A stretch of DNA of 60,605 nt, the filler included, from Streblomastix strix (Eukaryota): the NCBI GenBank assembly GCA_008636045.1. It is 3 parts of 3 records of this genome, joined end to end, with 100 filler letters (N's around TTAATTAATTAA, not from the genome) between each part and the next. Parts side by side here need not be neighbours in the genome. Positions count along the whole stretch, not along the records: positions 1 to 20,136 come from SNRW01000453.1; 2 more parts are not named here. One strand, 5' to 3'. The translations under genes and the position numbers were made by a program. The notes under the pieces were generated by a model. The model searched no databases and was not told where the DNA came from. It worked only from the letters and a program-made list of their open reading frames with translations. Positions 1-40,471 of the stretch are shown here, one piece after another (the stretch's first letter is position 1; each line of letters opens with the position of its first letter).

Positions 1-210
1 TTCAATGAAATAGAGATATCAAAGTACTGTTTACTCCTAACATATGATTAATTAGATGATTATCAAGAAAAAATTAAAAATATATGTGGAGAAGAAGTGA
101 AGAATTACATTGATGAAATGTAAAAAGGTAGTGAAAAGTAATACAAATTACGTGAATAATACATAATAGATTGGCGTTAGTTCTAAAAGGAAATGTGGGG
201 AGAAGATTGA
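1..210 (+). CDS. 3' end of a hypothetical protein, truncated by the window start
   Basis: Frame 1 is open with TAR=Gln (FNEIEISKYCLLLTYDQLDD...QKEMWGED) to TGA at 208-210. Confidence 0.45.
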
Positions 211-398
211 TTTATCTAAAAGCTAAGCATCTTAAGATGATTATTTTTGCATTAATAGTTATTTGACATGGACGAATGAAGGTAATTACCCTAGTAGAAT
301 TAATGAGCTCAGTTGTTGAGATTTTACTAATTTGGCTATGTATTTAACATGTATAGTGGTATTTTTGATGCCAAAATGATTGAATTTTAAATTAGTGA

Positions 399-660
399 TG
401 ATGGTCATTTGGCTGGGACGAATGATTCCTAATTTACGCGGCAGAATTAGTGCTCTTTGTGTAGAATTTAAGCGTTGATTTTTATAGTCATTTGACTGGG
501 ACAAACGGTTCCCAATTTCCACGGCAGAATTACTTTTCAGCGACGCGAATAATTAACTAAATCCGTCTATGGCATTTGATTTGTCAAAGTGATTGATTTT
601 TTGCGTTGATGCTGATGGTCATTTGGCTGGGACGAATGAGGGCAAATTCATACGGAAAAT
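399..660. repeat. Three imperfect copies of a relatively GC-rich ~45-nt motif
   Basis: GTCATTTG(G/A)CTGGGAC starts at 404, 487 and 618. Copies 1 and 3 share 27 identical nt (TGATGGTCATTTGGCTGGGACGAATGA). Copies 1 and 2 share downstream CGGCAGAATTA. Confidence 0.8.
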
Positions 661-1394
661 CATAGCCTCCAAAATTTTTGTACTATATCTCTAATATTTT
701 TCAAACATTATACTATTTCATTTATAAATATTAATTAATATTTATGGAAAATTTTGATTTTAAATTAAATTGGACTAAATCTGTTTTATTGCGGTTATTT
801 CATTTTAATTGATTTAAATAATTCATTAACTTTAAATATTTTATTTAGTCATAATAATAAAATAATATAATAATTTAAATTCAATTAATAGGAATTAAAA
901 TTTTTTGAATTATTTTTGATTTTTTTTAAAATATTAGATGCTTGGTATTCTCAACGCTATTATTTTATTATTTTCATATCGATCAAGAATTTCTTTCAAT
1001 AAATTAAAACCATAATCAAAGAAAAAGTATATTTAAATAACAATATTAATTTTAAATAAATTTACAGGAAATTTTTTGATTAATTTATAAGATATTTAAT
1101 ATTTAATACGAAATAAGGAATTTACATTACAAAAGAAATTAAAAAATAACATTTCATAATAAATTAAAATATCTACAAGAAGTATTAAAAAATATATATA
1201 AATCATTAGAAAATCTAATTATAAAACAATTTTTTTCATTAATTTCTTAAATTGAATAAAAAACAAAAACAGTATAAAATCATTGATTTCCAATTCATCG
1301 CTACACAATCTGTAATGTAAAGAGAATTATAAAAAAAAAGATTAATTATAATTACAAAAAAATTAACTTTACAACAGAAAATTATAATATAATA

Positions 1395-3513
1395 ATGAAT
1401 CATACAAAGTAAAAAAAGTTAAATTTCAGGAATTCATTAATGGATAAGAAAAAATAAATATATAATGCAACTGAATTAATTAAGTTTTGAAGAAAATTTT
1501 ACTGAAAATAAAATTACATAAGAAGTAACAAATAATATTTATTATTCAAATGTTGAGCAAAATAATGAGGAAATGATTTAATAGAAAATTAAGATACAAA
1601 CGTACATCTCGAATAAATTTTAAAAATTAATAAAAATATACATTTGAAATAGAAATCAATTAAGTAGAAAATATTAAACATATATTATAAAAATAATAAA
1701 ACTATAGAAGAAACACGTAATAGCGCTGTAATTTCACCAACAAAGTCCATTAATTTTTCTGAAAATTCTTAATAAAATCCAAATTCTTATCAATCACTCC
1801 AAATTAATTTGATTCAAAATCACTTATTTCTGATGACAGCAATAATATTGTCACTCCCCAATAAATAATAGTAAATCCTGAAAAAAAAATTTAAAATTCT
1901 GTTGCTGCAATAAAAACAGTAATAGAAATTCTAGAGGATGATGATGAATCAGTAGATGAAACAGATGATGAAGCGTGGTGACATCGGAAATAGTACTTCA
2001 GAAAGTTGATAACAAACTAAAAAAATGAATATTTTAAAAGAAAAGGAATAAATTAAAATTAAAAAATATCATTGCATGATAGTGAAGATGAAAGTAGTAG
2101 TGAAAATGATAGTTAAGTAGAGCGATAAAAAGACTAAGATTATTAAATCGAAAGCGATAGTGATTCATCTTCTGAATATGATATAGATTTTGGATCTATG
2201 ATTGAAAATAGTTATGAAGATGAAATTGAAATCGTTTTAAATAATTGTTGAATGAAAAAAAAATGAAGATTAATATGATGATCATAAAACAAGTACTCTA
2301 TAATTAAAAAAAATAATTGTTAATGGAAAAAAATATTTTAATAATAATAATTAACATAATAAATTATGAGAAAAAATAATAATAGTATTGACAAATATGA
2401 ATAATTTAAAATAATAACAACATTATTTGCAAGAAAAGAATTGTTTAATTCATTTTAGGAGGAAAATTAGAATATCAAAATTGGATATTCATAATATAAA
2501 AAATTCATTTAATTCAGAAAAATTCCTTCTAAAAGTTAAGTTGATATATGTAATCTATGCGAAGATTTGTTTGAATTAATAAAATCAGATTATGATATCT
2601 AGATTGAGTAAGAAGAAATAAAGTAAGTATGCTCATAATTACACCAGCTAGATGTAATCATAAAAAAATAAAAATATAATTAATTATTAAATAATTTATA
2701 GAATTCCGAATGCATAATTGTAACAGAATTTGTAGAGAGTTTCCGACTTCCTGTTAGAGCTAGAAAAATTAGGAAGACTACTTCAAATATAGTCAAGTGT
2801 CAATTCTGGCATTTTTAATATAATAAAAATAAGAAAATCTAATAATTAATTAAGTTTATTATTTTATATCTCTTTGCTAAAAAAAAGATTAAACTTACGT
2901 ATATGACTGTTTTGAAGATTTAATTATAAATAATAATTTACCATTTAATACAATTCATGTCTGGTCGGACAGCGGCACTTCTTTTAGAAGCGCTTCATTC
3001 AATTATCTTTTACTTTCTCCTTTTTCTCCGTTTCATCTTAAATATAACATTACCCAATCATTTTATGTATCAGGCTATTCAAAATATATATGTGATAGAG
3101 AATTTGGAATAACAAAGAATAAAATAAGATCATTAAAAAATAAAATATTGATTATTGAATAATTAGAATAATTTTTATAAGATTAGAGAAGTTTTGGAAC
3201 AAATACAAACCTTAAATTTGTCCGATATGAAAGAAGCGAAGGTGCACGAAGCTTCCCAATTTATTATGTTGATAACCAATTACAATATCTAAGTTTTAAA
3301 AACATAAATAATTAATTAAAACGAAGCTACTATTATGAGATTGATACAAATAAATATTAAGATATAGATAATAAACCCGAATAAAAATTATTCAAAGTTA
3401 TAAGCAAGATATCTGAAGTTAAAGTAAATTCAATTTAAGACAAAAATTATAATATAATGGGAGCCAAGAATATGAATTCATTACTTCCAAAAGTTGGAAA
3501 AGGATAAAACTGA
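1395..3513 (+). pseudogene. Degraded DDE/DDD-type DNA transposase (Sola-like)
   Basis: With TAR=Gln: acidic low-complexity N-part, DICNLCE (CxxC), IIVTEF, IHVWSDSGTSF and SGYSKYICDREFG; TGA at 3511-3513. Frameshift near 2765 and stops upstream. The 5' end is approximate and no TIRs were found. Confidence 0.55.
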
Positions 3514-4319
3514 TTCTCATTTCAATAATATTTTAAATTTAATAAATTTTTAATAATTATTATAAATTTTGGAAGTGAAAATTATGAATTAAAGTTTATA
3601 TAATTATAAAATCTATTAAATAAAGAAAATTATTTCAATTAGTATAAAATTATAAATGTAATTATAGAAATAAAATAACAAAATACATTTTAATGAAAAA
3701 ATAAAATAAAAATATTATGTCAGTGTTAAATGGATGTTGACATGAATAAATATGATTTATTTAACTAATTAAGCAAGAATACAGAAATTAATCTTAATAA
3801 AATTCATTTTAAAAAGTTAGTTATGATGAAACTCAGAATTTATTAATTAATAATATTTCTAAGTTTGTTTTGTATTTATATGTAGTATACAAAGAAGAAG
3901 TTTGCCGTATGTCAAAAAGCATTCATTTTCAGATCAATCTGCCCACGATAATTGAATAGTTGTAGCAAATTTATCTAAATATCAATGATTTTTAACATAC
4001 GGCAGCCAATTTTCCATATAATTATCGAATTAACGTTCATATATACATTAATTCATCACATTGATGTGAAGTATGAATAAATAAACGTTAATCCATATAA
4101 TTAGTCCATATTATTACTTGGAGCGCAGTGAAAACACATTATTCAAATTCGTTTACCATTCGAACAAACTGTTATAGTAAGTGTGTATCATTAATTGTAT
4201 CGTAAATCCTTATGATTTTCTAGTGTTACTAATATATTAATAAAAAGTAAATTTAAGTGGGTTAATGATAAAAGTTAATTTGTTTATTAAAGTGTGTTAT
4301 GCCTAATAAAAATAATCAA

Positions 4320-4978
4320 TCAATATAAATCAAAATTAATATCTTTATCCTGTTCTTCATACTATGCAGATTCCTCTTAACAATCATTTGTAGCTTAAAC
4401 TTATTATTATTCTTATGACTCTTCTTTTTCAATAATCTATTTGGGTTACTTATATTGTTTAACTTTTTATTTATATCACTATTTGTTTAACAGCATCTTA
4501 ATGTTATTGTTTAATAAAAAAATTTTCTGTTCTCATCCAGATTAGCACTTCCAAATCAAGTTAAGGATTAGTGTAATTAGTTTATGGAGTTTTTGATGAT
4601 TTTATGACTCTGTTTCTACCTTCTGCGGCAACTCTGTTGCTAATTTATTTCTTTAACTGTTTTTCCCCTTACTTCGCTTATTGATGTTTCATCGCTTTCA
4701 TTTTATTCTTCTAATGGTTAATAATATATGAAATCTTCTTCATCAACATCAATCTATTTTTAAGGTTATTTTTAAACTATCTTCTTTAGGTCTAACCCTC
4801 CTCCACGAGCTTATAACAATAACTTATTCTATTATGTTTATGTAATTTTTTAAAGGTCTTTTTTTCCTTCATCGAATACTTTAATATCTTTATTAGTTTG
4901 GATTACATATCCATTGTCAAAGTATTCAATATTTGTTCCATTCTCTATCAAATTCTTTAAGGCATGTTGTAAGTCCAT
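4320..4978 (-). pseudogene. Viral hypothetical protein (probable frameshift)
   Basis: ATG at 4978: MDLQHALKNLIENGTNIEYFDNGYVIQTNKD..., ending DINFDLY-TGA at 4320 after an apparent frame change. Confidence 0.55.
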
Positions 4979-5054
4979 TTGAATATTTTAAATAAAGAAA
5001 ATGATAAAGGGCATAGAAAGAAACTAAATTCGCATATCAAAATCCAAAAAATAA

Positions 5055-5743
5055 ATGTCTGAGATTAAGCATAAAGAACTTACGGATGAAGATAAAATAA
5101 GATTGCAATTGATCGATGATGCAATTAACAGGGTTAAATCAATACCAACTGTTGATGAAACAACCAAGAAAATGAGATTTAAACTGAGAATGAAACCAAC
5201 AACGTTGGCGGCATAAATGTAATTATTACATCAACACCTGAGTAATTGATCCTAACAGAATAAAAAATTACTAAGAATAAGAGTAAATATAATAAAGATA
5301 AATATAAAGAAGTAGATATAACAACAGCATAAGTTGAACCAGATGAAGTTGTTAAAATTACTTATCTTTCACACCCTAATCTCGCTGTAATGAAATTCAC
5401 TATCGATTGCCTATGGAAAACGGTAACTACAAGAAAAAGAGGAGATGATTTTATATTCTCATCAGATAATTTTATTAAACTTTGGTCATTAATTACTTAA
5501 GAAAATGAAGATGGTATTGAAACTCTATTAGAAGAACCATTAATGCGGTCCCATTTATGCATAGGTAAATCATATAAAAAGAATGATTTGATTCGTGTGA
5601 TGGATATTTTGATTAAGAATGTATCAGTTAAAGTATTGAATAATGTACTCTATAATTCTATTGAGAAACTTTATCGTGTGAATTGTGATTTTGTACGTTT
5701 AAGTGATACACCTGAAGTAGAGATTACCAAAGATGACTTTTGA
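5055..5743 (+). pseudogene. Viral hypothetical protein (one frameshift near 5170)
   Basis: MSEIKHKELTDEDKIRLQLIDDAINRV..., continuing in a shifted frame into the listed ORF 5543-5743 (...RLSDTPEVEITKDDF). Confidence 0.6.
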
Positions 5744-5771
5744 TTATATTTATTTTTTATTTGTCAAATAA

Positions 5772-6338
5772 ATGACATAGTAAAACAATTGGGAAACTTT
5801 AAAAGAAAATCCAAATTTTGTTATTTTGACCAATGAACCTCATACAATTGAAAGAATAGCTGATGATTTTATTCCTAAGGTTAGTTATAGTAATTCATCA
5901 AAATATTATTATATCAAATTGAATAACGACTAATACCTTTTTCATAGATTGATTTCATAATAATTTATTCCAAATCCTAATAATCTTCCTGAAGTTGATC
6001 ATATTAACCGAAATAGATTAGATAATAGAATTGAGAATTTACGTTGGGTATCTCGCTCCGACAACTAGAAAAATAAAGTTGGATGTAGAATTAAATATGA
6101 ATATTTTGATGAGTTACCTGATGGATGCTAACAATTAGATATGTATAATGGTCATGAACTAGAAGGATACTACTTTGATTAGGATTTTAATGTATATTAT
6201 CATAACGGTCTTAAATTTAGAAAGTTATTTGTTCATTAATACTCTTATTTACCATATGATATTGTTAATGTATGCGATGTAAACCACAAAAAGATTAATT
6301 TATTAATTGATCGATTGAGGAATGGAAATTACTAATGA
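5772..6338 (+). CDS. HNH endonuclease (HNH_3/I-HmuI-like), 188 aa
   Basis: Intact in code 6; motif FHRLISQQFIPNPNNLPEVDHINRNRLDNRIENLRWVS. Confidence 0.9.
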
Positions 6339-6363
6339 AAAACCTATTATTTTTGAAATAAAA

Positions 6364-7122
6364 ATGGAAAAATAACTAAGCGATTTAGATATGATTGATG
6401 AAGATGAATAGATTAATTAGTAAGAATATGTTAGTAAAATAAAAAATTAATAAGAAGAGGTTTAAAAATAAATTAAGGAAAGTAATACATTATTATAAGT
6501 TATTGGTAATGAGAAAATAAAGTACTTTAATTATTTGAGTTAATTTTTTAGGAATTCTATCGATTTTGTTAATTTGCATATTAACTAGATTGTTCGTGGA
6601 GTAAAGACATTTTTATCACATATAATAGCTGGCAAAATTATTAAATAAGGTGAAACAATTAATTAAATTTTATTAATTAACGGAGATACTATTGATAAAG
6701 ATTAATTAGACTATGAATCTATTGAAATTGCACGTTATACATCAATTGTTTATGGAATGTACGAGTAACGAATATGGGGTACATTAACAACATAAAATAG
6801 TAGAGTATATATTTCTCTTCAAATAACTCACTCAGATCCAAATACTACGTGGGAATCAGGATATACTTTATTCTCAATTGTTGATAATGCTATAAAACCA
6901 AAATTCAGTGGAACACCAACAAACATACCATTAAATGCAGTTATGTTTGCGTAAAAGGGATACTATTATCCAATGTTATGGAATGGTGCTATTCCTATTG
7001 ATTGTTTTATTAATCTTAATGGTAATGTTATAATAAATACAATGTGTTCGTTAAATTTACCTGATGATTTTTGTTTATAGGTTTGCGATTCATATGCTAT
7101 TCATAATTAATCAGCAAGTTGA
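6364..7122 (+). CDS. Putative short fibre/spike protein, 252 aa
   Basis: Intact in code 6: N-terminal coiled coil, shaft motif NQIVRGVKTFL...AGKIIKQGETINQILLINGDT, then a beta-rich C-terminal domain. Confidence 0.55.
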
Positions 7123-7169
7123 TTAACAACAAAGTTGCTGGTATAAATGCTAATTTAAAAATAAACAAA

Positions 7170-7295
7170 ATGAATCCGATAAATGAAACCATCATCTATT
7201 CTCTTGAATAATTGAACATTAACTGGCAAGCAATCTTTAAGACTATATAGGAAGCAGCAATCAAATACACATACGAATCAAAGATTTGTCATTGA
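7170..7295 (+). CDS. Small viral ORF, 41 aa
   Basis: MNPINETIIYSLEQLNINWQAIFKTIQEAAIKYTYESKICH, preceded by AATAAA like other element genes. Confidence 0.3.
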
Positions 7296-7323
7296 TAATA
7301 AAAATTAATTTATTTTTGAATTT

Positions 7324-9701
7324 TCACTGAGGTTTAATAGCTCCACCAGCAAGCTGTCCAATAACATCAATATATAGTACAATGTGTTGTAAATGCGTGA
7401 AAATTGTAAACGCGTGAATAATAAAATTTTATTTTAAATAATTTTATGAAAATTATCTTGGATTACACTATTTCAATAAATTAATTCCAAAAATGCACAT
7501 ATTAATAAATTTCACACCCCAAAAAAAATTTTATTTAAATTTTAGTTTGAAAATATAACATTTTTTATTTTAAATATATAAAAGCTTAAAGAAGTTAAAC
7601 TTTTAGCAATTAAAATATAATTAAGATCCATTTTTCTTGAATTTTAATTTATTTTTTATTTTTAAGAAATTTTATATTGAATTAATGTATATTACGACAA
7701 TTTTTAGAAAATAATTTAAAATTTATTTTTATTATTCACGTGTTTACAATTTTCACGTGTTTACAAACTATTGTACTTATGGCATTGAGCTATCATCAAA
7801 TATAATTTTAACAAACGCATCACACAAGTAATGCATCATTGGTGTAATAGATACTTTAGGAGGATCAGGATATGCTCTTATTCCAACGAATTAATTGAAA
7901 TCATTTTAGTTTTATGATGGATTTATATTAGTTGTATCAATAATTCCTTTAGCCAAATTTCTTTACATAATCACTTATACATTATTTCTAGAACCTATCT
8001 TAGAAGAGTTATATCCTCGCATAAATGAACCATCAGTAGCCAATTTCCATGCAAGCATATATTTATTGAGATAAAGTGTTCTAATAGCTTTACTTCCACA
8101 ATACAATGTTGTTAAATAGAATTTGTTAGCTGTTTTATATTAATCACTATTATCTATCAATCCATAGTAATTTTTTTATCATCAATATTCAAGTTCTCGA
8201 ATGTAAGTGAATGATATAGATCTGATGGGGCACTAACAACATCTTAATCAACGAAACAATCGAACATTTATCCATTAATTACTTAATTTAAGGATTTATA
8301 TGGTTATGGGATAACATTATTCTTATCAATAACTAGATTAAGTCCTGTGAATATTACAGGGAAAAACCACGTTGGATACAAGGGCATAGCAAATGTCACA
8401 AATAATGCCTTTATGTTAGAGAATGACATAATGCTTTACATTGATCCACTTTCTTTATCAAATCCACTAAATGGAAAGTTCGATGATTATGTTCTAAATA
8501 CTTATGTAAGAAAGTCAATTATTTTATGTTATTGAATCATTCTAATTATAGCTTCTTCATTTTCAATATTGATGCATACGTTCTATATCTCTAATGTATC
8601 AAATTTAGCTGATCCAATCTAGCTAATTGAATTTTGTGGTATCTTATCAAGAACAGCCGCATTTTACATATTTAAAACTCTTACATTATATCTTTTATAC
8701 GATAGATCATCAGCATCATCTCTTGATAATAGATAAACAATATCAGATTTCTCAGGAGGAATCATGTGATAAGCTAAATGATTATTTTATACTGTATCAT
8801 TTTTGTTAAGTCAAACAACCTTCAAATCTTATAGGAAATCTTATTTCCATAACTGTAGATGTTACGTTGCATAATTACGAGTATGAACAGGAAATGAATT
8901 AAATATAGGATTTAGTTAGCTAAGATCAAGTTCTCCACTGAACCTAATATCAAAAGGTATTTTATAGTAAAATGGTGTTCCTAAATCTTCAACAGTTGCT
9001 TATCAATCAATTTCACAAAGTGGGAAATCAATAAATACTCCACAATGACGTTTTCCTTCAATTATACTTTCAAGGGGTGAAACACTAACGCTATTTTTAG
9101 TACACAAATCACTGAGAGAATTCCCACTAATCACAGCTTATTCTCTTGCATAGATTGCAGATCCCCATAATGTTGTTGCATCTTTCTTTAGTTAAATTTA
9201 GTAGAATTGTCCACACGAAGTTGAGAAATCGATCCAAAATTATAGATGTTTTGATGATTCAATTCCTTAAGCTGATTTACCAAAATATCCTTATTCAGCT
9301 TATGACATATCTGTAGTCCAATCGGCTAATGGATCTTCTTTACCATTGAAATTAGTTCGTGCGATTAATTTACCTGCAGTATTCAAGTCATTAAATGTTT
9401 TATTTAATTGCATCGCTAATGTATTTTTAGAAATAGTAATTGTCCAATTTACTTAACAAGTTTGAACCATTGAAAATGCAGACTTACCACGTGCTCCTAA
9501 TGGTGCTCTAGTATATTTAACTCCACAAGATGTAAGTTCAGTTATAGGAGAATCGAAAAAATTTTGCTTTGATATTTCAAATGATTGTGGATGTATAGAT
9601 AGTGATTTTAGAACTTCTCCAAGTTACATATATCCACTAACATAATCAGAATGTTTCATTTTTGCTAATCGTCCAAGATAATCACTAGATTTGAATGACA
9701 T
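7324..9701 (-). pseudogene. Putative major capsid protein (~650 aa), interrupted by a MITE
   Basis: ATG at 9701 (MSFKSSDYLGRLAKMKH...); beta-rich; FSNIKALFVTFAMPLYPTWFFP, YMLAWKLATDGSFMRG and MMHYLCDAFVKIIFD; internal TGAs and a frameshift. The frame rejoins exactly across the MITE (DSSMPY/IDVIGQLAGGAIKPQ*). Capsid identity is inferred from size, composition and context. Confidence 0.65.
7376..7777. mobile_element. MITE, 402 bp, with ~80-bp imperfect TIRs
   Basis: Left end AGTACAATGTGTTGTAAATGCGTGAAAATTGTAAACGCGTGAATAATAAAA is the reverse complement of right end TTTTATTATTCACGTGTTTACAATTTTCACGTGTTTACAAACTATTGTACT. TAT (or TA) is duplicated on both sides. Confidence 0.9.
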
Positions 9702-9789
9702 TCCATTGAAACAAAAATTAATGAAACGGAAGTCAGAGACTAAGCGAAGCGAATAGATCTTTATATTAAAAGTTTTTATAATAAATCAA

Positions 9790-9996
9790 ATGGGTTTCTT
9801 CTCTGGAATAGCAAATTTTTGGTCGAAAATATTAGGTGGCGTTAAGAAAGCAGCATAATGTGTTGCACCAGCATTACATAAAGTTTTGTCTCCAATATCA
9901 GGTCCTGTTGGAATGATTTATCCCGCAATTGGAGGTGCATTAGGTGCAGGAGCTAATCTTGTAGGTGCCGTGGATCGACTTATAAATAAGCGGTGA
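9790..9996 (+). CDS. Small amphipathic Gly/Ala-rich protein (68 aa), candidate membrane-penetration protein
   Basis: MGFFSGIANFWSKILGGVKKAAQCVAPALHKVLSPISGPVGMIYPAIGGALGAGANLVGAVDRLINKR; intact. Confidence 0.7.
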
Positions 9997-10022
9997 AATT
10001 GACATAATTTATTTTTGTAAAA

Positions 10023-12269
10023 ATGAACAATTCACTATCATAATAGTAAATCCGAACAGTTAGATAACTTATCACTAATGATATAGCTTACTATATTCAA
10101 TATTAGAAACGAGGTAATTCTAGTGGTGGAATGATGTCAAATGAAGAGTATCAATTATTCATAAATAATAACAATGCATTAGTCTACGCTGCTAACAATT
10201 AAATCGTTGATGGAATTGCATCAGATTATGCATTAAAAATAGAAATAAGTGGTTTGCTAACGATAAAGAATTTGAAAGTGATTAATTTTTATTTTGTAGC
10301 TTAGATTAATTAGTTGATTAATTAAGTGAATTTACTATAACAATCAATTGGAACAACTGAATAGGATATTACTGATATAAAATATGATATTAATACTATT
10401 AATCAAGAATTATCAAGATAAACACATTTCTGAGGATATTATTTATTGAATAGTGACATCTAAAATTTAACTAATTCCGCTAATGGAGATTTTTCATTTA
10501 GTGCTGAAAGTGGAACAATTTGGATATATGATTAAATTTGGTATAATAGTTGAAATATAGTTCCAGATCAAGTAACACCTGCAAATGATGCAATTCCATT
10601 ATCTGATGGTACAGCAACAGCAGGAGTTAGTACAGAATATTCACGTGGAGATCATGTTCATCCATTAAATATAACAACTACTATTCCAATTAGTGATTCT
10701 GCTAGTGGATCAGTTGGTTCAACTAACTATTATGCCAGAAACGATCACTCTCATCCTCTCAATATAACAACTACTATACTTCCACAAGATAGTGTAAGTG
10801 GATCAGTTGGTACAACTAACTATTATGCTAGAAACGATCATTCCATCCAATTAATGTAGAAACTAATGCTTCAAATATTCCAATCGTTAATGGAGTTGGT
10901 GCAAATGGAACATCAGCTTTTTACGCTAGACAGGACCATATTCATCCATAACAATTAACTTACGATGGAAATGTAGCAGTAACTAAATTTATTAAATTGG
11001 AGGATTAGCGTCTGAAATATTGTGAGTTAATGGTGATACAACTACTTTAGAAAATAAATTTTCAAGAACATTTACAGGTAGTGGATGGGTTAGATTATGT
11101 GTATTTCCTGCTGGAGCTAGTGTTTGTAGTCCATTCATTGAATTTAAAGTATATTCGTCGTATAATTCTGTTCCAATCATTGGATTATAGCCTTTTTACA
11201 CTGTCAATGGTATCAATACTGCATATGGAGTATTTACTGCTCCAACTAGATTTACTTCATACTATTTGATTGATAATGGTGCAAATTAATTATTTCATAC
11301 TCATACTGGATCAGGTACGGCAGCTATTTATTCTGCATATATTAGATTAGAAACTGTTGGTTCAATTAAATTTGTGGTAACTGATTAAAGCACTTATTAT
11401 TCCAATAGAATTACTGAGATATTAACGTAAGATGCAGTTTCAACTGTTCCTACTGGAACATAAATACCTATAAATTATAATTTTGAAAATGTGGGAATAA
11501 TATAAAATACTCTATAAGTTAATCCAACAGAACGTATGAAATCCAACTATAATAATGGCATAAGAATAGGAACATATGTGAGTGAATCATCATTATATTT
11601 AGCATGTAGTAATTCAACAATTAGTGGAACAGTAACAGGATAATGAGAAGCTAGTAAAAATAATGATGATGCATTAACTATAGAACCTAGCTCATTACGA
11701 TAAGCTGATCATAGTGTTGGTTTAAATAGTAATAGTGATAGTACAAAAATAACATTTGATGGTAATGAATTAGTGAATATTGGAACTGACTAAACAATTA
11801 CAGGTATAAAACATTTGCAGGAGTTGTTTGTAGTGCTGCATAAATTAATCCTACTACTGCTAATTACTCATAAGGTTTGCGAATAAGTAGAAGTACAACA
11901 GGATGTGGTATATATATTGGAACTGGCAACCAAATAAACGGAACAGTATAAAATTATTGGTAAATAGTTTCATAATCTGATAATTTTGATTAAAACCCAT
12001 TAGGATTAACAATAGGCTTAAATAATGAAAGCTGAGCAGCTAATAGAGGATTACGAATAAGTGCTAATGTAAACACATTATTTTTCAATGGATATGTAAT
12101 TACAGGAACTGGCGTATCAAATGGTGGATATTCATCAGTAAATTATTCATAAGGAAAAGCAAAATAATGGGGTGTAAATAGTACAGATCCAATAGGTGGA
12201 TTCTATAGTGATTGAGCTAAAGTATATTGGAGAGCACATCCTTTAACAATGGGATCAGTTCTTCCATGA
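10023..12269 (+). pseudogene. Phage-like long tail-fibre protein with HxH repeats (~750 aa)
   Basis: Coiled-coil N-part; four repeats ending YSRGDHVHP, YARNDHSHP, YARNDHS(H)P and YARQDHIHP; motifs TKFIKIGG..EIL.VNGDT and DQTITGIK; G/S/T/N-rich C-terminus ending VYWRAHPLTMGSVLP*. Several TGAs and frameshifts (~10844, ~11815). Confidence 0.7.
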
Positions 12270-12297
12270 CTTTGATTATAATTTATTTTTGAAATAA

Positions 12298-12760
12298 ATG
12301 GAAAAAGCTGTAACACAATCGATCAAATAATTATTCAATGAATTAGTGAAATCACACTTTTAAGATAACGATACAATTAATGACACAATTGAAGCATTAT
12401 AAAATTTGTTAAAGAATGATGTAAAAGAGTCAATTCATCCATTACTCTAAGAATTAATGAGAATTAATAAAAATGTTCACTAATCAATAGTAATAATTAT
12501 AAAATATAAAGAAAATGGTTAATGAAAAAGATTATAAAAATAAGTTATTTAATGAATAGGATAAGTACTTCAAAAATAAATATCTATTAATCAAAAAGTC
12601 ATTAGATATAAACAATTAACCATAACAAATAAAGAAGTACAATATCTCTGAAGCTAGTGAAGAAGAAAAATAGATTTACAATTAATTTGTGAATGATGAA
12701 TAATACAGTAACTTTGTCAATTATTATCAGCTTAATTTAAAATAATAAGATTGTTGATAT
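12298..12760 (+). pseudogene. Viral hypothetical protein, degraded
   Basis: MEKAVTQSIKQLFNELVKSHFQDNDTINDTIEALQNLLK...; the frame breaks near 12520 and the 3' end is approximate. Confidence 0.4.
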
Positions 12761-13344
12761 ATTATATGTACCTAATTATTTCTTCAATTTTATCTTACGT
12801 TGGTTCAATAGAACAATAATGTTATTTGAATTATTCATATGTTTATTTTTCCTATTAATCCAAATCATTTACCTCGATTGGCGCTTCGAATATTTTGAAA
12901 ATCTCATAATCAGTCTCATAATACTATAAGCCAATGTTTATCGCTAATTAGTAAAGTTACTCCATTTCATTTAATTCAAACAATTTATTTTTATGGATTA
13001 TTTAACATTTTAAGATACAAAATATATCTCCATTGAGTAGCTAATTCCAAATCTTTATTTGATATTACTCCATTCAAAAATGTTTCGATTAATTCTACAG
13101 ATAACTATGACCAATGAATGCATGGCTAATTTTTATCCATTTTTCTTTTGTAAAAGAATTGTATAATGTAAATCGTTATATTTAATGGAACCAATACTAT
13201 ATCAAAATAGCTCCATAATGTTTTTACTACATTATCAGTATCCATTAATTTATCAGATATAGATACAGATATAATTGATGTTACAAAATTAACTCCATAG
13301 AACACGTAATTCATTACATTAATGATTACCGATAATATGTTCAT
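12717..13344 (-). pseudogene. Viral predicted membrane protein (two hydrophobic segments), frameshifted
   Basis: Listed ORF 13126-13344 continues through TAG (Gln); hydrophobic stretches ILSVIINVMNYVFYGVNFVTSIISV and LWSYFDIVLVPLNITIYIIQFFY. Confidence 0.45.
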
Positions 13345-13394
13345 GCAAATTTTATTTGCCGCAAAATCAAAAGATTTTGATTATTGTTTTTAAA

Positions 13395-14411
13395 ATGACA
13401 CTACAAGAATTATAAGATATAACATTTACTAATCAAGATCTATTGAACGAATATAAAACTAAGCCATTAACGAAAAATTCACTGTTACTGATTAATGGTA
13501 ATCATTATATTGTGGGAACTGTTGGAAGTGGTAAAACAACATTAATGTGTAAGCTAATTGTGATCTATAAGAAAATCATTAATCTGTACATATTATACTT
13601 CTCGAATTACGGTGCAGATGAAACTATGGCATTAAATCTTAATAGTAGGAACATTTAGTTAACAAATGTAACTTATGGAGAAGCAATGATATTTCTACCC
13701 GAAATTGATGAGATAAAATATTCTACTAAGGAGATGTATACATAGTATAAGATGAATGAATAAAAATAATCAAATACTATTGATTTCATTAAGCGATTGG
13801 AAGAACAAATTTTATAAGCTAATGAGATTAAAAAAAATGAAAAACCTAATGATTATCTTAATAAAATTGCTGAACTATTCAAATAAAAAGTAATCAAACC
13901 CATTAATACATATAGTTAACCAACCAAGATACTGAGATTCGATATCCCTGCTCTAATTCAAAACGTTAGTTATTAAAAGAAATTCAAAATAGTTGATGAA
14001 GATTAGGTTGATGTAAAGGTGATGAAAATACCTATATTAGAAAAAGCTTAATTACTCCATACATTAATGCTCTTTGATGATATTTGATCTAACGCAGATA
14101 TCTAACGATTCAGTTAATAACTGTCTAAAACAATAACACATCTCGTTAGTGATTCAAGACATAGTAAAAATACTATTTTCTTTATAGCTTAACGACCAAC
14201 TTATTTGTTTAAGACAGCAAGGATATTAACCCATATCGTTTGATTGGGAGTTAATCTTGGGGAAACTGATCTAAGATAAGTGTACGATGAAAATACCATA
14301 TAAAATTTTGATTTTGATGAATTCCAATTACTATACAACACATTAAAGAAATATGAACTTATAATATTAAAGAAATGAATGGAAAATTTTGAAATTCTAA
14401 AAAATAAATGA
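13395..14411 (+). pseudogene. A32/FtsK-HerA DNA packaging ATPase
   Basis: Walker A YIVGTVGSGKTT, Walker B TLMLFDDI, and SDSRHSKNTIFFIAQ...ARIL. One frame with premature TGAs (14085, ~14241, ~14376). Confidence 0.9.
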
Positions 14412-14420
14412 TAGATATTA

Positions 14421-17400
14421 TCATTCGTACGAATAATCCTTAGCAGTTAATCCATACATAAATGGACAGCATGATTGATTCTGTAATACTATCATTTTTG
14501 TGTGAATTCTTGTGATTCCATTTTTCTCAATAGAAAATTAGCTCATCTAATGATTCTTCTATCCTAATCTCATATTAGTGCATTCAGTTATCTTTGCTTC
14601 ATAAATGCAATCGACTATCTTGTCTTTAGTGATTTTATTAGTCTCCTAATTATCTCCTTTCAATTTTATTTTTGAATCATCGCAATAATTCTTAAATATG
14701 ATATAATTTTTAGGAGCTAATGCAATCATTGATGGATATTGTCTTTCGATTGCTAATCCAAGGATTTTCTTCTCATCATAAACGTCTCCTTTAATCGTTT
14801 GGAAGAAATACTTAGCATTTTCATTATAAAAATCTCTGTCTTAAACTACAGCATTAAATTACTAAGTAAAATCTTAATTAGGATTACCACTAATTGCACA
14901 ATAAGCTGATTCAGTATCTCCTTCGATAAAATGTATCCTATTCATATCTAAGCATTTGTACATGAAGTAATATATAAAGTTTAGATACCAATATTTAGCA
15001 CTATCTAATACAAAGAAAGCAACTTATAAAGAAGTTTTACAACTGCAATGTTCAGGATTCATTTAAACAATATAACTGTCTTCAGATATTTTTTGTTCAT
15101 CCATGAATGCATTAGATCTAATAGCTCTTTCTGTTTACTTCCTATTCATCATTTTAACTTTATGATATTTCTCAGTGTTCATTCCATCACTACCATAAGA
15201 ACTATTCATAACTATCTTAAAGAATTATTCCTATTCCTTATTCTCATTCAATTTTGCTTCAATTCTGTTTTTAGTAAATTCCATAATAAATGAGTTGAAT
15301 TAATCATGTTTATTGAATAACACTGTCTACTTTACATCATCTATAATAAAATGACAATCATCAATTAAGAATCATAGTTAATATGAGCTAAATGTCATAA
15401 ATTCTCCCATCGTTGATGATAAATTAGTTAGCTTTCTTTATTTTTGAACAGTCTTAATCGTATTCTATTTCATATGATTAAACATATAATTACCGATAAT
15501 TCTTTCATCAGTTGTGAATTCATAATTTCTTAGAATATGTGCGAAGTTAATGAAATCGTTAAGGTAATTCTCTTAAATATGACCCTTAATTTCTGCAATG
15601 AATAATCTTTCTTCTTGTGTAAATCTCTTTTTGCTATTAATTATTCGTAGTATAGATTATCTTGAATGTTCACTATTACCCTCAATCTAACCTGTTTATG
15701 ATCCACACATATACATTTCACCTCCTGTATATTTAATAAATTTATGAGGCTCTGATAACATAACACTAAGATATAAAGGATTAAAATCAACACCAACTAC
15801 ATGAGTAATTCGATAATCAGTAGTAAAAACAGTAACCTTTTTATTTACTTTATCATATTAGATTCATTTAATAAAATCAATTTCTGAAACATTAACTATA
15901 TGTATTGCATTTAATAATCCACCTGTGATCCATTTTCTGATTAAATGATATACCTCAATATCTGTTAAATTAGTTGGTAAGCATCTTATCATGAAATATT
16001 TACGTAATTATATGAACGATTTACTCATATTTTTATCTTTGTTTGAACAAAAGTAATTGCAATATAAACAACAAGGTTATACATTATCTTTTGAATGACC
16101 CTTTGAATTGTCGATTCTGTCTAGTGTTGGTTTATTAGCAAAAGTGAATTTACATGCATAAATGCTGCAATTAGAATCTTTGAATAATTGTTTGAAATAT
16201 TCGAAATCACTTTCTTATACGTTTTTTGTTGTGTCTCTTCTTTAATGTTTATCTTGGACTTGATATCCCCGTACTTTACTCTAACAATAGTTCCCTGTTA
16301 AGTAAAATTTCTATGATAAATCTTCAAAATTAGGATATGCTCCATTAATGTCAAAATCCTCATAAGTTTTAGCATATTTGATAGCATTAGAGCATGCAGC
16401 CGTACTCATGAAACTAAACATATCAATCATATATTTAAATTGTAAGCTAATTAGAGTCATTAATGGTTTAACCATAATATAAGTATCTTATTCGTTATAG
16501 AATTGTAAATAGTCCCATCTATTTTTAAATCGTTTTGCATCCTCTAGATAAATTTAATAATTCATTTAACTAATTTTAGTATTCTTTAATGATGAATTGA
16601 AATCTTCCATCGTAAATGGTTCTGATTTACTTAGTACATCATTAACGTTATCAGTATTGAAAGCTTCATAGGAAAATAAGCCCTTTTTATCATCATATCC
16701 ATCTCCAAAATCTTTTGCTGCTTACTTTAATTCCATAGCTTATAGATTCATCAGCATATCAACAAATTTCACCTTCAAATTCAATTTCTTATGATGCATA
16801 ATTACTTGCTTTGCTTATGAAGGGCTACCTATACAATTACTGATTATCCAATCTTTACATTACATTTATTATATAATTAATGATATGTCAAATCTTGAGC
16901 TATTGAATCCTACTATTGGTACTTCCATTGAATAAGGAATTGTTTCATCAATGGTGCAAGCTTCTGTGATATATTGATTATTAGCATTAACTTAATCAGC
17001 TTCTTTAAATAATTAATGTAACCATTATAATACAAAATCATCTCCATCTTACTAACTAAAGAAGATTTTCTTAATACCTTTTTTGTTACGAATAGTTGAT
17101 GCAACTGATAAAGGAAATAGTTCATACATTTAATAACTTGAATTACCGAACTTTTTATTAACGATTTTAGGAACTGTTTCAAGATCGTATGTGATGAAGT
17201 ATTGTTTAGGCTTAAACTCATGATATCTTCCATTTGCTAAAAGATATTTATATGTTTTATTTTGCATAATGTGTGGAACAAATGGCTTTTAGATGTATTC
17301 TAAACTAACTTTATTAACTATTTTTCCTTCGTTATTCTCACATTTAATAATAAGTTTCTCATAGTCTCTTGAGTAATTTCTATCTTTAAGATCGAATGCT

Positions 17401-19133
17401 TTTGAATTACAATGTGGACAAAATTTTAATCCAGTTAATGCTTATTTATTTGCAATTGCGAAAGCATGACAAATTTTCTTTCCTTCCCATTCAGATTCAA
17501 CAACTAATAAATCAATTGTTTTAATGTCAATCGCGATATTAGATGTGCTTTCGTATTTGTTATTTTAATTATCCTATTAATACATTACCTACAATTCTCT
17601 ATAATAATTTTTATGTTCATTATCGTAATAGTAAATGTCTTAGTTAATTTTTAATTTTTATGATACAATTTACGCGTATTTAGTTATATCTAATGCTTCA
17701 AATGTTTTCAATAAATCATTCATTTTTCTACTCTTTGAATCGAATGGTAGCTCTAATACTTAAACTAAATACTCTCTACTAATGTTTATAATTGATTCAC
17801 TTTTATACCTTTGGCGGCAACTTTGTTGCTATCGCTTCTCCTTTGAATCAGGATGTAATGCTTTGGCTATTGCTTCCATATAACAATTGTTATTATTTCC
17901 TGTATTTTTATATATAACATTTTTGCGACCCAGACAATGAAAATCGATTAATTCTTTCATACTAGCACCAACAATTTACGGTTAAAGATTAAATGTTTTG
18001 ATTAGCATTGAATGGATAGCTATGAATAGTTGCTTTGTGCTATCTATTATATAACTCTACATATTTACTATTGCAGATTTAATGTATTATTTATATTTTT
18101 CAATATCTTCTTCAAATAATATAACTTTTGGAGCATGTTCCTGAATTCGTGTATCACTTGGTAATATATATCCATAATCAACATAAACTTAATCATTCTA
18201 ATCAGACTTATATTCTTCGTAAATGACTCCAAAATTGAATTGAATCTTAAATGCTTAATGGTGCTTTTCCTCATAAACTTTATCAACAATCTCTTCAATA
18301 TCAATTATAGATTAGATAACATTATTATAGTGTAATTCGCTAAGTTATCCATTTTCTTCTGTTTGTTCTATTGTATGTTCCCGAGCAAATCCTTATCTTG
18401 CATTATAAACTGTAGCAATAAATTATTCCATATTCTCAAGAAAAAAATATAATAGAGTACCTGCATAATTATTTATTTCTCTAACTTTTATCCCACCAAA
18501 CTATTTAATAAGATCAGTAATCACTTTATTTTGCTAAGCAGTTATTTAGTATTGTAGATACGCTTCATATTCTTCGCTTGCTTAGCCTAAGGCATCTTAC
18601 TCTTCTTCCATAATTCTTTAAGCTAACTCTTGTTATTTATTGATCTTAACAGACCAGAAATCATTAGTTTCTTATTATTTTTATTCTCTACGATATTCTT
18701 ATAAATCTTATTCATATTAGTTTGAGTGATATTAAGTTAAATCTTAATGTAATTATCGGTTCCATTCTTATAAATCATCCTAGTAGATATCTTCTTATTG
18801 TTACAATTATTCTCTACGATATTCTTATAAATCTTAATCATATTAACTCTATTTGAAATGCAATCTTCGATAGGAGCTCTGCTATTAAACTAGGTATTTT
18901 GCCTTAAGGATTTACTTATTATAATTATAAACTTATTTTAAATTTGTTCTCAAATCATTATAGTTACTTCTACCTCGTTTCTTATAATTAATTTTGTTCA
19001 AATATTTATTGAGTTAATCTTTAAGCTAATTTATTTTTAATGAATTTGCAGAGCTCAAACCTATGGTTTCATTTATGTTTCTGATATTGATTTTGAGTAA
19101 TTTAATTAACTCCGCTTTCTTTAAGTAAGACAT
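14421..19133 (-). pseudogene. Protein-primed family B DNA polymerase polyprotein
   Basis: ExoI YFITYDLET, ExoII VGFNSSRFD, KGLFSYE, ExoIII YNEQDT, ITGGL, motif A GVDFNPLYLS, motif B KIVMNSSYG, motif C EGDTES (degenerate), ALAPKNY and KLKG. Start 19133, stop 14421; frameshifts present. Confidence 0.93.
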
Positions 19134-19170
19134 TTTGATTAAAATAAAAACAATTTATTTAGACAGCTCA

Positions 19171-20136
19171 TCAAAATTATATCTCGAGAAGTAAATTATT
19201 ATACATATCCATATATTGCATTGGTATCTTTCTTCCAAAGTTATCATATAATGTAAAGACTAACGATTTGTTCTATCCCATAAGACATTACTGACTCATC
19301 ATATTCTATCCCCATAATACTGGTGCATCAATCAAATTCTATTTAAAGCATACGTTAGAGAATCCATTACCTCCTGTTGATTAAAGAGTTATTCCTTATA
19401 ATTAATTAGATACGCAAATTATCAACATTTATGGATACTCTAGAAAATTCCAAATGTATGGGCAAAATATTGGAAGATCAACTTCTAAGCTTTCGTTATT
19501 ATGTTTAGTTTAATAGAACCATACTTCAAGATCAATTTGTTTAATAGCTGATGATAAATTAACTAATTAATTGGCTCCATTCTAGTTCCATCCATCATAA
19601 AGATCTTATCCAACAACTAGTTGTATATATAGATTTGGAGATAGTAATATACGATTAGAAAACCAGTATAAGTTGTTTTACTAACAGTATTCAGTCACAA
19701 CATATGGTATAAATTATCCATAATAATTTGTTCTTCCAACTGCAGTATAAATATCTTACCATTCAGCAATACTAAATGCAAGCAATGATTTGATAATTCT
19801 AATTGGAAATGTGTTAAAATTATTGATAATTTATTACATTGTTAATTGTTATACATTAATTGGTTGAGAATCAGATGTAGTAAATGTTCCATTAACATAT
19901 ATATCAACTTACTTACCAAATAAGTATCTTATTGATAGACCATTGCCTTATGAAAAATATTTTGGTTCAATTGATGTTATATAATTATTTGATGTTGGGC
20001 AATATAATCGTATTAATCCAATCATTCGGTATAACTCATTAACTGTTGTATCTAAAATCCAGTAATGATATAGAAATGCATCAATTCTAAGGTTAATATA
20101 ATTGATAGCGGAATTCACTAAATCCTATCCATAATT
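19171..20136 (-). pseudogene. Putative minor capsid (penton-like) protein, 5'-truncated by the contig end
   Basis: Beta-rich reading frames with shifts; C-terminus LVFTLYDNFGRKIP...NNLLLEIQF* resembles single jelly-roll penton ends of Polinton-like elements. Confidence 0.5.
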
Positions 20137-20236
20137 NNNNNNNNNNNNNNNNNNNNNNNNNNNNNNNNNNNNNNNNNNNNTTAATTAATTAANNNNNNNN
20201 NNNNNNNNNNNNNNNNNNNNNNNNNNNNNNNNNNNN
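20137..20236. other. Artificial contig linker
   Basis: 100 nt of N with a central TTAATTAATTAA. Confidence 0.97.
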
Positions 20237-22799: not shown

Positions 22800-23699
22800 A
22801 CATTATATAGTAAATACACTATCTTTAACTTTTATAAATCATTATATTTTTATAAATATATTAATGGAGAAATCAAACAATTAAATAAATTTTAATTTTT
22901 AATACTTATTATTAATTTCTTAATTAACCATTAATAGTAATATTAATTATTCAAAATTATTGAATCAATATTTTTTTTAATAATTATAGGATCTAATGTA
23001 TATTTTTTGAATAGTTTTTATATGTATAATCTTCTTTTCAACAGTTTTAAAGTCTCAAAATTAATTTTTTAATTTTATTGATTGTTAAATTTCGTTTTAT
23101 TTTCATTATCATCTTTTAATGTCAAATATCATATTATTCAAATTTAACAAATATATTGTAAGTTTAATTATAGTTCCTAATATCAGCTCTATAAATATAT
23201 TTATGGTGTAAATTAATAAACTGTTAAAATATAAAATTAAATGTGTTGATTTATCAATAGTTTTTAATTATTCTTGAAAGATTGGTTTTATTTCACTCAT
23301 TTTTCTATTTCTTCTTCATATTTGTCGATCCAACTCGTTGACAACATCTCTTTTATCGATAATTCGTTATATCAAACTTTGACAGAGTAATGTCTTTATC
23401 TAATCATTTTCATTCCATGTACTCCAGCCCATTTTCAGCATCATTCCTCTTGTTCGATCCTTCAGTTCTCAAGGGAATTTTCTCCTTCTTTCTATTTCAT
23501 TTCGGGTTGCAATATATATTTTGGGTGGGCCAGAAGTGATATAAGGAATTATTTGGATAATGGATCATTAGCGTGTCTCTTGGAGAAGCGAAAATTATAA
23601 TTAGTTACCCCCTTCTCCCCTTATCTAACATCATTATTGAGATAAATAATTGAAACTTCTACTGTTTTTCTCTGCAATACTTATAAACTACCAAATATT

Positions 23700-24570
23700 T
23701 TAGTTTGCATTAATTTTGGATGCAAATATATAGTATATTCCGACTATAAATAAATTTTAGGAGTGATATTTAGAAGTAGTGAGATCTCTTTCAGATATAA
23801 CTTGCTTTATTAATTAAATTATTGTTGAGTAGTATATTATGTTTACTGAATCTTCAATTATTCTTAATTATTATAGTAGTTTTGTAAGTTGTAGATTTAC
23901 ATCTTTTGCAGTTGTTTATTTATAAAAACGCTAATGTCACTAAAAAAAGTCAGTATCCTTTGGAAATTGATTCTTAAATCTATGAATCCATTCAAAAATT
24001 GCTCATTTTGAAAAAACTTTTCATTATTTGTTTTACTAACTTCTTATATTTCTGTTGAGTCATCTTGTTAAAAAGTAGATCTTGGTATTGATAGATTATT
24101 TATTTTATTGGCATTCAAGAAATTCAATCTTGATTTTGCCATTTCATTTTGTACAAAAAAGCTTATCTATATAGATATAGAGGCAATTTTAACTTGCAAG
24201 TCATAGCTATTTAAATATTTATTTTGTTTTGGTTTTCTCCTGAGGTTAAGAAGTATTTAAATGTTCCAAATATTCTGATATCTTCTATGAGGGATAGTTG
24301 CATTTGCAAATGTCTTGATAATTAATTTGGATGTAGCAGACATTGCTAAGTTCTTTTTATATATAAGAGATTACATTGTAGTTATACAAGCTTTATGTGA
24401 TTTTGCTGATGCGACTGAGCTATTCTATTTCGTATTGAAGGCAATTACTCCTGTTAATATTACTTCTGCATCTTTCTTCATCATTTCTTCAATTGTTATT
24501 CTTTCAATGTCAAACCAATCTTGTAGTTGAGTTAGGAAGTTGAAGTCTCTCTTAGCAATGTTTAATCTGT
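23700..24570 (-). pseudogene. Tyrosine recombinase of DIRS-like copy 1
   Basis: RRYQNIWNI, LQVKIAS and a decayed C-terminal ...HSQN...VGIYYIF; lies downstream of the MT domain; catalytic motifs eroded. Confidence 0.55.
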
Positions 24571-24759
24571 AGCCTTTGAACAGTGAGTTTACCCCCCTTT
24601 TCCGGAAATAACCGCATCTTCATTCATCTCATTAACAATTCTCTACCTACATCTGCAGCAGGTCCAGAAGCAAGGCGCTCAAATTGTTTGGTGGAAGCTT
24701 TTGATCCTTGTTTTTCATTCTCTGTACCATCTCTAGAATTCTCTCTGATAATCCAAGAA

Positions 24760-30800: not shown

Positions 30801-31440
30801 CAATGTCGTCATCTGTTGAAGCGTAACTACTGGATGCTGTGCTAGAATCACTCTAAGAATTTTCAGAAGAGCTATGTTAACACTATCGTGCAAGATAATG
30901 TTTGAATTTATTATTTGTTTTTTTATACTTGCCCTATTTCTGCTTTGAAAGCTTTTATTAAGGAAGCGATTCAATGGAATGGTCAAAATCTGACGATTAA
31001 TCCTTTCTCCTTCGTTTCAGCTTCCAACAATAGTGTTAGGTAATGCGATCACTTGTACTGCGTTCAGATCCACTGTCGGTTATTGATACTTCGTCAGTGC
31101 GTTTATATTTCGACACTTTAATCGCTAAATCTTCAATGTCGTCGATTTCTTCAAATTTCTATGCAATTTTTTTCAGCTTTTCGAATAATTTCCTTGTTTT
31201 AGGGTTAATAAGGACCTCGCTATCCGCATGGGATATTACACTTAAGAGTTGTATAGGAATTTGCGTAGTAAACACGAATTTGTTTTCAATAGCCTGACCC
31301 ATATGCGAAGGCTGTAATCAGAGCATTTCATGATTAGCATCTCGAACAATAAAAAGTGTGGTTGTCATTCAATATTCAGTGGGAGCGGTTGATGTGATCA
31401 TTCATGAAGGAATTTGAATTAGTCTATTTATACCAGCATA
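27850..31440 (-). mobile_element. DIRS-like retrotransposon, copy 2 (divergent, degraded, YR truncated)
   Basis: RT: DARAIN, SIDIKSAFIH, MPFGL, decayed YSDY. RNase H: ILTTDTS...QTDNH...HIKG. MT-like: EDMFAT...FINPP...AMVWPNQ. YR N-part: KPRYCKAWN...YSTLRG. Gag-like region ~30200-31300. Boundaries approximate. Confidence 0.85.
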
Positions 31441-40371: not shown

Positions 40372-40471
40372 NNNNNNNNNNNNNNNNNNNNNNNNNNNNN
40401 NNNNNNNNNNNNNNNTTAATTAATTAANNNNNNNNNNNNNNNNNNNNNNNNNNNNNNNNNNNNNNNNNNNN
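40372..40471. other. Artificial contig linker
   Basis: 100 nt of N with a central TTAATTAATTAA. Confidence 0.97.

Follow-up and report, generated by a model that had tools for sequence, protein, structure and literature searches.

Gene content and genetic code of the element

The window analysed here is a stretch of 60,605 nucleotides from Streblomastix strix (NCBI GenBank assembly GCA_008636045.1) in which three unrelated contigs (20,136, 20,135, and 20,134 nt) are joined by N spacers at positions 20137-20236 and 40372-40471; because the contigs are unrelated, features cannot be linked across the spacers. The first of them, SNRW01000453.1, carries from approximately 3,800 to its end at 20,136 what is almost certainly a decayed endogenous Polinton-like virus written in genetic code 6. 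A first-pass annotation of the DNA had claimed such a virus, hidden by the code and with at least 12 intronless, packed genes, and our results agree on both points. With translation table 11, the region 4320-20136 has 8 open frames of at least 80 aa, the longest of 107 aa, whereas table 6 opens frames of up to 1143 aa in the same region. Approximately 14 intronless, tightly packed genes or gene remnants can be read, and a function is supported for 6 or 7 of them.

The code assignment was tested independently of the S. strix gene models. Where four pieces of the capsid gene have TAA or TAG (32 codons), glutamine makes up 20% of the residues in 35 standard-code homologues, as compared to 4% elsewhere; the share is 18% once one misaligned column is dropped. 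The conserved glutamine of the ATPase (AQR) is encoded by TAA in the window and is glutamine in the standard-code homologue on L001, a metagenomic contig described below. TAA and TAG account for 224 of the 282 glutamine codons in 14 element frames, and for 376 of 536 in six host frames.

Major capsid protein

The major capsid protein, of approximately 650 aa, is encoded in pieces at 7324-9701 on the minus strand. Its three large pieces tile an intact 669-aa paralogue, P0006, at 80, 80, and 73% identity, and all 97 matches to the first piece (among 1,434 candidates) come from S. strix, where UniRef has automatically named some of the paralogues "Major capsid protein". The fetched S. strix models of 600-700 aa (n = 28) are 48-97% identical and fall into 5 groups at 70%.

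The first-pass annotation had called this gene a capsid, with the double jelly roll as the test, and the intact paralogue P0021 is predicted to fold in that way. Modelled from an alignment of 89 rows, the window pieces among them, it gives a double jelly roll (pLDDT 64.7, pTM 0.69). Foldseek placed the Sputnik capsid first (E 1.7e-9), followed by iridovirus, mavirus, and PBCV-1, and a viral structure library returned adomavirus LO7 and virophage capsids. In VIA comparisons, PBCV-1 (rmsd 5.0, 333 aligned) and faustovirus came out at Z 16.2; poxvirus D13 reached 15-16, the Sputnik and mavirus capsids 11.7, and the adenovirus hexon less than 10. The fold class of the model is therefore clear, while the nearest family is not. 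A double jelly-roll capsid defines Polinton-like viruses in the wide sense in the available text of Bellas and Sommaruga 2026 (10.64898/2026.06.19.733378), and the paralogue model predicts one here.

Among Atlas capsids, the neighbours are Preaxostyla (0.96-0.97) and Parabasalia (0.96) clusters, and then nucleocytoplasmic large DNA virus (NCLDV) and virophage capsids. For nine full-length capsid members, no Pfam family, DUF4106 included, gave a match at the curated cut-off, and the virophage (Sputnik/V20) Pfam capsid gave none at E up to 1; a PDB sequence search with a 48-row capsid profile was likewise without match. Across the element's proteins, Pfam, PHROGs, and NCBIfam returned no match to capsid, penton, A32, integrase, or protease families.

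Packaging-type ATPase, polymerase, penton candidate, and putative entry peptide

A packaging-type (FtsK-HerA/A32-like) ATPase is encoded at 13395-14411 on the plus strand. A long insert separates its Walker A (GTVGSGKT at 13515) from Walker B (LFDDI at 14070), and the latter is followed by SRH, FIAQRP, and HIV. The Walker A and B, arginine, and glutamine motifs stand in the expected order, which we take to be that of the FtsK-HerA/A32 class, and they are kept in a homologue on L001 (E 2e-12) with the same long insert and the conserved glutamine. The best NCBIfam match of this L001 copy is VirB4 (E 3e-4).

The gene of the protein-primed DNA polymerase (pPolB), which the first-pass annotation had also recognised, occupies 14421-19133 on the minus strand as one frame with two premature TGA codons. 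It matches Pfam PF03175 (DNA_pol_B_2) above the cut-off (E 9e-10) and contains an endonuclease VII insert (phrog_1035, E 3e-11). Terminal-protein-like, vOTU Cys/His (aa 417 and 556), and exonuclease motifs were placed by eye, following the domain scheme of 10.1101/2024.03.18.585575, whose available text also notes homing-endonuclease inserts in polinton pPolBs. With motifs assigned in this way, the element has the combination of pPolB, terminal protein, and vOTU that characterizes Maverick-Polintons.

At 19171-20136 on the minus strand, with its 5' part lost at the contig end, lies a probable minor capsid (penton) gene, so assigned from sequence. It has 12 matches of 596, all of them S. strix homologues, some of which extend further N-terminally. 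Its C-terminal motif is shared with a protein of a second metagenomic contig, L002 (HH E 2.5e-4, probability 43%; BLAST E 0.014), and the C-terminal part of that protein scores 0.97 to Sputnik V18/19 minor capsid clusters. PDB sequence searches with the ATPase, the polymerase, and the penton profile were blank or gave chance matches.

Beside the capsid gene, at 9790-9996 on the plus strand, a 68-aa peptide begins with Met-Gly and is predicted to form an amphipathic basic helix. A homologue is present on L001 (E 9e-5, 37% identity). Over the 18 residues after Met, the hydrophobic moment is exceeded by 15 of 5,000 shuffles, and that of the L001 copy by 17 of 5,000. A Met-Gly start permits myristoylation, and the peptide is a candidate myristoylated membrane-entry peptide. 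The peptide is conserved and amphipathic, and the entry role given to it earlier is putative.

Metagenomic relatives

A search of 50% representatives with the capsid gave 71 matches, five of which, at 25-29% identity, are from ENA, Logan, or NCBI records. A profile of these five and the S. strix copies then found 159 matches among 7,997 candidates. The best 120 of the 159 are 627-715 aa long and 53-65% identical to P0157, apart from P0157's closest kin. At least 120 metagenomic capsid genes are intact in the standard code; their longest contigs measure 17-24 kb in 36 of 120 cases, more than 24 kb in one, and less in 83. The S. strix and metagenomic capsid profiles align with an HH probability of 100% (E 1.6e-45, 567 columns, 25% identity), a homology that extends along the full length of the protein.

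We built a capsid tree of 70 rows, comprising 25 S. strix copies, every third of 119 new matches, and 5 others (quick mode, midpoint drawing). The S. strix copies form one side of a branch with support 100 and a very long stem. The other rows fall into a metagenomic group of 42 members (100), the pair P0138/P0154, and P0155 on its own; the order among these four groups is not settled, and long branches meet.

Two JGI contigs, L001 (22,996 nt, 18.4 kb examined) and L002 (21,833 nt, 14.4 kb examined), carry dense, intact, standard-code viral genes, and no host genes in the parts examined. With the window, L001 has in common the ATPase, the Met-Gly peptide, and an HNH gene, and L002 the penton C-terminus; the three differ in gene order. 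L001 encodes a 942-aa protein of the primase-SF3-helicase type, and no pPolB was found in the 18.4 kb of it examined. IMG/VR (five queries), GTDB (two queries), and GenBank phages returned no relative, and these blanks are weak because the scans required exact peptide patterns. No RNA dataset is listed as containing the stretch. We consider the metagenomic relatives to be likely free viruses of approximately 17-24 kb that share the capsid module and can exchange the replicase, and their capsids to come likely from an undescribed family of such viruses.

Several further features of these contigs were observed. The primase-helicase gene of L001 lies between direct repeats (75 nt, 81%; 42 nt, 81%; at 12977-13738 and 16858-16985), and an exact 300-nt duplication adjoins the repeats; this arrangement may point to a mobile replication cassette. 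Directly 3' of the L002 capsid gene, 4545-8525 encodes a protein of 1,326 aa with a penton-like domain at its end; the minor capsid would therefore carry approximately 1,000 extra residues, perhaps as a spike. At 1185-1665, L001 encodes a tandem pair of Met-Gly amphipathic peptides, of 77 and 73 aa, which open with one common pattern. The outermost nucleotides of L002 (1-43) are an 11-nt tandem repeat, possibly a genome terminus.

Edges, decay, and other copies

The stretch occurs in termite-gut metagenome runs (largest share 0.33), and its host is very likely the oxymonad S. strix, to which all the matches of the first capsid piece and of the penton candidate belong. Reads of four runs (X1-X4) were placed on 137-7360 only, and depth was summed over contigs, which is not the same as copy number. 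In X1 the summed depth is 66-787 over 860-3750 and reaches tens of thousands from 3,752 onward (291 at 3511-3751 vs 3,891 at 3752-3992), and a single-copy contig with 0 differences terminates at 3813. Because the depth climbs at 3,752 and the single-copy contig stops at 3813, we place the left edge of the element at approximately 3,780-3,815, and not at 4320, where the first-pass annotation had begun it. X2 shows a weaker version of the pattern with a small signal, and X4 shows no element-shaped profile. X1 and X3 are one sample, possibly the source sample, so X2 is the sole independent run.

The left terminal region (3780-4320) is apparently non-coding and of high depth; a six-frame Pfam scan of it gave no match, and it contains an imperfect hairpin at 3903-4004 (40-nt arms, 83%). 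On the right, the element stops at 20136 because the contig ends there; the penton gene is therefore truncated at its 5' end, and the contig lacks the right half of the element, along with its second terminus and any integrase.

This copy is dead as assembled, in line with the earlier claim of stops, frameshifts, and an inverted-repeat insert. The capsid gene has two premature stops, one frameshift, and a 394-nt insert, the ATPase gene has three premature stops, and pPolB has altered palm motifs in addition to its two TGA codons. These breaks lie outside the read check, which covered 137-7360, and some of them may be assembly errors. The insert, near the 3' end of the capsid gene at 7380-7773, is a miniature inverted-repeat element with 134-nt arms (75% complementary) and TA on both sides; a GTAC duplication fits the flanks equally well. 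Presumably it is Tc1/mariner-like. The paralogue P0066 continues through the insert site to the same C-terminus.

We compared 202 proteins with the window; 11 of them, chimeric gene models from other copies, show which genes adjoin each other there. Six of these (P0029, P0140, P0032, P0094, P0174, and P0175) have the order and orientation seen in the window. In three (P0010, P0066, and P0143) the peptide or gene C is on the capsid strand, and in two (P0048 and P0095) another HNH gene is. The deviating models may be real rearrangements or amplification chimeras.

Other genes of the element and its neighbourhood

At the left of the element, gene A (4320-4978, minus strand) is frameshifted and lies in the high-depth region, and gene B (5056-5743, plus strand), likewise of high depth, is frameshifted near 5155; neither has a family match. 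An HNH homing-type endonuclease follows at 5733-6338 on the plus strand (Pfam HNH_3, E 4e-13), with a weak homologue in L001 (E 0.002). Depth dips over this gene, and joints in other copies run from 5742/5745 to 6346/6371; since contigs of other copies skip 5743-6345, the gene is an optional insert. Gene C (6322-7122, plus strand) is an open frame of 266 aa with a coiled coil and a beta-rich end and no family match; in models of other copies (P0029, P0140, and P0143) it likewise lies next to the capsid gene. We assume it to be fibre-like. A 41-aa open reading frame (ORF) at 7170-7295, plus strand, is tentative.

To the right of the peptide, a plus-strand gene at 10023-12250 (right end approximate) has A/R-x-D-H-x-H repeats, a 93-nt repeat, several stops and frameshifts, and no family match. 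We take it to be fibre-like; genes of this kind are present in L001 and L002 (Gp10_C). Two small plus-strand ORFs at 12298-12525 and 12515-12757 have no family match. A probably frameshifted gene, divergent from the ATPase gene, is read at 12717-13245 on the minus strand; compared with the similarly placed gene of L001 and L002 as its possible counterpart, it did not match.

In the left flank, a second high-depth repeat at 137-859 contains three 57-nt copies (385-441, 468-524, and 599-655). A frameshifted remnant at 2282-3513 (plus strand), without Pfam or NCBIfam match, resembles what we take to be a DDE transposase; as the integrase of the element it was ruled out, since it sits in the low-depth flank. 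Contig 2 has a decayed retroelement at 23462-31317 on the minus strand, with a reverse transcriptase at 29477-30163 (RVT_1, E 1.4e-9) and an RNase H-like frame at 24624-25766; we assume from its motifs that it is DIRS-like. Contig 3 contains, at 42884-43981 and 55466-58177, ordinary host genes, cyclin-like and IQUB-like with a 42-nt tandem repeat tail. Both N spacers carry a TTAATTAATTAA core.

Comparison with known systems and alternative explanations

A code-6 viral element in S. strix is not new as such, since Bellas et al. 2023 (PMC10120064), in the text available, report 820 S. strix capsid hits in one Metamonada cluster and elements that use the host code. The Metamonada group (MMN) comprises capsids of Trichomonas, Histomonas, Entamoeba, and S. 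strix (MMPC_40-41). Its S. strix elements have the same likely host and code as the window element, and Foldseek gives Sputnik as the best match of its divergent double jelly-roll capsids. By eye, the capsids also share AREQ/AREE after the first strands, Cys-Gly, and an IPL/LDL...FP...L stretch. Because these short motifs are alike and the Atlas neighbours are Parabasalia and Preaxostyla, the window capsid is probably a distant branch of the MMN supergroup. The two differ in length, as the illustrated S. strix capsid has 562 aa and the MMN representatives 528-586 aa, compared with approximately 650 aa here, and in that the MMN representatives are not among the 97 matches; the subfamily in the window differs from the published representative and seems new. 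The available text of PMC10120064 maps no genes of the S. strix elements and reports no free relatives for the group, and that of Bellas and Sommaruga 2026 leaves Metamonada elements ungrouped, with more genomes needed.

The leading alternative is that the element is just another member of the published S. strix "Metamonada" cluster (MMPC_40), within the 820 hits, and that its metagenomic kin are endogenous in unsequenced standard-code protists. We regard this as a distinct possibility that falls short of an even chance. The 820 hits form, according to the text available, one cluster at 25% identity over 30% length, gathered by PSI-BLAST, which could reach this subfamily; Parabasalia are among the Atlas neighbours, short-read contigs of repeated elements likewise break near element length, and the IMG/VR scans returned no member. 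However, our 97 matches include neither the Table S3 representative of S. strix nor three further S. strix proteins named in Table S5 rows, and the supplement text preceding the S. strix rows contains none of three subfamily motifs and six locus tags. DUF4106 and the other Pfam families stay below the curated cut-off on the nine full-length members, and L001 and L002 have intact, dense viral genes without host genes.

A giant-virus-dependent virophage, or a virophage-Polinton hybrid like the rumen virophages, is improbable in our judgement. Sputnik and mavirus capsids do rank first or close to first in Foldseek, the capsid is large (650 aa), and the penton end resembles Sputnik V18/19. Rumen virophages (Divpevirales), as described in the available text of PMC4409740, combine a virophage capsid with pPolB in approximately 20-26 kb, with a large capsid as here. 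Yet their capsid is of typical virophage type and they carry a protease, and neither feature was detected in the window element: the capsid has no virophage Pfam match and its 48-row profile no PDB sequence match, and the element part of the window has no protease. In VIA, NCLDV and poxvirus capsids (Z 15-16) come before those of Sputnik and mavirus, and published metamonad capsids, in the text available, also give Sputnik as the best Foldseek match. Similarly unlikely is a self-synthesizing transposon that retains a capsid, spreads only within the genome, and had a recent ancestor without particles: the copy signal in contigs is very high, most S. strix capsid models are fragmentary, and no RNA dataset on record has the stretch, but subfamilies 48-70% identical retain full-length open capsid frames, and fibres, penton, ATPase, and peptide, which would be useless to an intragenomic transposon, are all kept.

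Against these alternatives, an integrated virus remains the reading that we favour, and several observations weigh against it. No terminal repeats or target-site duplication of the element were seen, only the left edge being present. The GC content of the element (26-27.5%) exceeds that of the left flank (20%) and equals that of the other two contigs. The folded protein, P0021, is not the window capsid itself but a paralogue with 59-71% identity to its pieces; the model has moderate confidence, with Foldseek TM-scores of 0.3-0.4. The penton link to L002 spans 30 columns, and the single-sequence fold of the penton candidate is poor (pLDDT 29); the earlier claim of a capsid gene at 19171-20136 has indirect support, through the C-terminal motif leading via L002 to Sputnik V18/19. 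The A32-type ATPase claimed earlier has the Walker and glutamine motifs and an L001 homologue, and no A32 profile match in the Pfam and NCBIfam scans. Synteny with other copies is partial, since 5 of the 11 chimeric models show other orientations. Pfam and PHROGs scans of 3,700-20,136 found no RVE integrase, the contig ending inside the element, and no Ulp1/adenain protease was found in the element part of the window or in 17 L001/L002 proteins, all partial sequences. The full virion-morphogenesis module that had been proposed is slightly overstated: the predicted major capsid, the probable penton, and the ATPase were recovered, without a maturation protease or integrase within 3,700-20,136.

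Maverick-Polintons (Polintoviricetes) likewise have a pPolB with terminal protein, vOTU, and homing-endonuclease insert, a packaging ATPase, major and minor capsids, and integration. They differ from the window element, in the 16 kb of which no RVE integrase or Ulp1/adenain protease was found, the capsid is unmatched by any Pfam model, and the ATPase has a long insert; the relatives of the element, moreover, swap pPolB for a primase-SF3 helicase. Replicase exchange is common according to the available text of 10.64898/2026.10.13.758929. Fibres are known in Polinton-like viruses (PMC12220804, in part), and the available text of PMC8502044 describes membrane-active proteins of adintoviruses. There, a membrane-breach role is proposed for adenovirus protein VI and the adintovirus Cupiennin-like, PLA2X, and GasderminX proteins, and in the window, too, the capsid gene has a small, basic, amphipathic peptide as its neighbour. 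The peptides of the window and L001 differ from those proteins in their Met-Gly start and their length of 68-77 aa. The egovirus preprint (10.1101/2024.03.23.586382), as far as its text is available, covers large gut viruses and Trichomonas polintons, which are not of the window capsid family.

Proposed life history and significance

We are highly confident that the element is a dead, integrated, code-6 virus copy whose ancestor most likely formed virions. The ancestor would likely have had a non-enveloped icosahedral capsid built from the predicted double jelly-roll protein and the probable penton. Its ATPase would have pumped in linear DNA, which the protein-primed polymerase would have copied, and vOTU may have freed the terminal protein. 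Fibres would have bound the host, and the Met-Gly peptide, myristoylated and packed in the capsid, may have broken the endosomal membrane in a role like that of adenovirus protein VI. Integration would have relied on an integrase, either from the right part that is absent here or from other copies. Once adapted to the host's code, several related lineages may have entered the host or diversified in it.

A broader proposal, for and against which we find the case evenly balanced, is that the element is an integrated, code-adapted member of an undescribed double jelly-roll lineage of 17-24 kb, at the level of a family to an order, with more than 120 free standard-code relatives that would be the first exogenous kin of the metamonad capsid group. 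Its members would have in common the long-insert ATPase and the Met-Gly entry peptide, may mature without an Ulp1 protease, and would have exchanged replicases (pPolB vs the repeat-flanked primase-helicase cassette). We found no description of the metagenomic capsid family in the literature on Streblomastix/oxymonad Polintons and capsids or on rumen Polintons (subscription journals, figures, and preprint supplements lay outside the search), and no free virus of the metamonad group is described in the literature examined.

Metamonad Polinton-like elements occupy large parts of genomes such as that of Trichomonas. The capsid subfamily in the window provides a query that retrieves more than 100 intact metagenomic relatives on contigs of near-unit length, and through these relatives the placement of the group, the assignment of hosts, and the isolation of particles become testable. 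Together, the element and its relatives offer a clear-cut example of one virus lineage that occurs under the standard as well as a reassigned genetic code.

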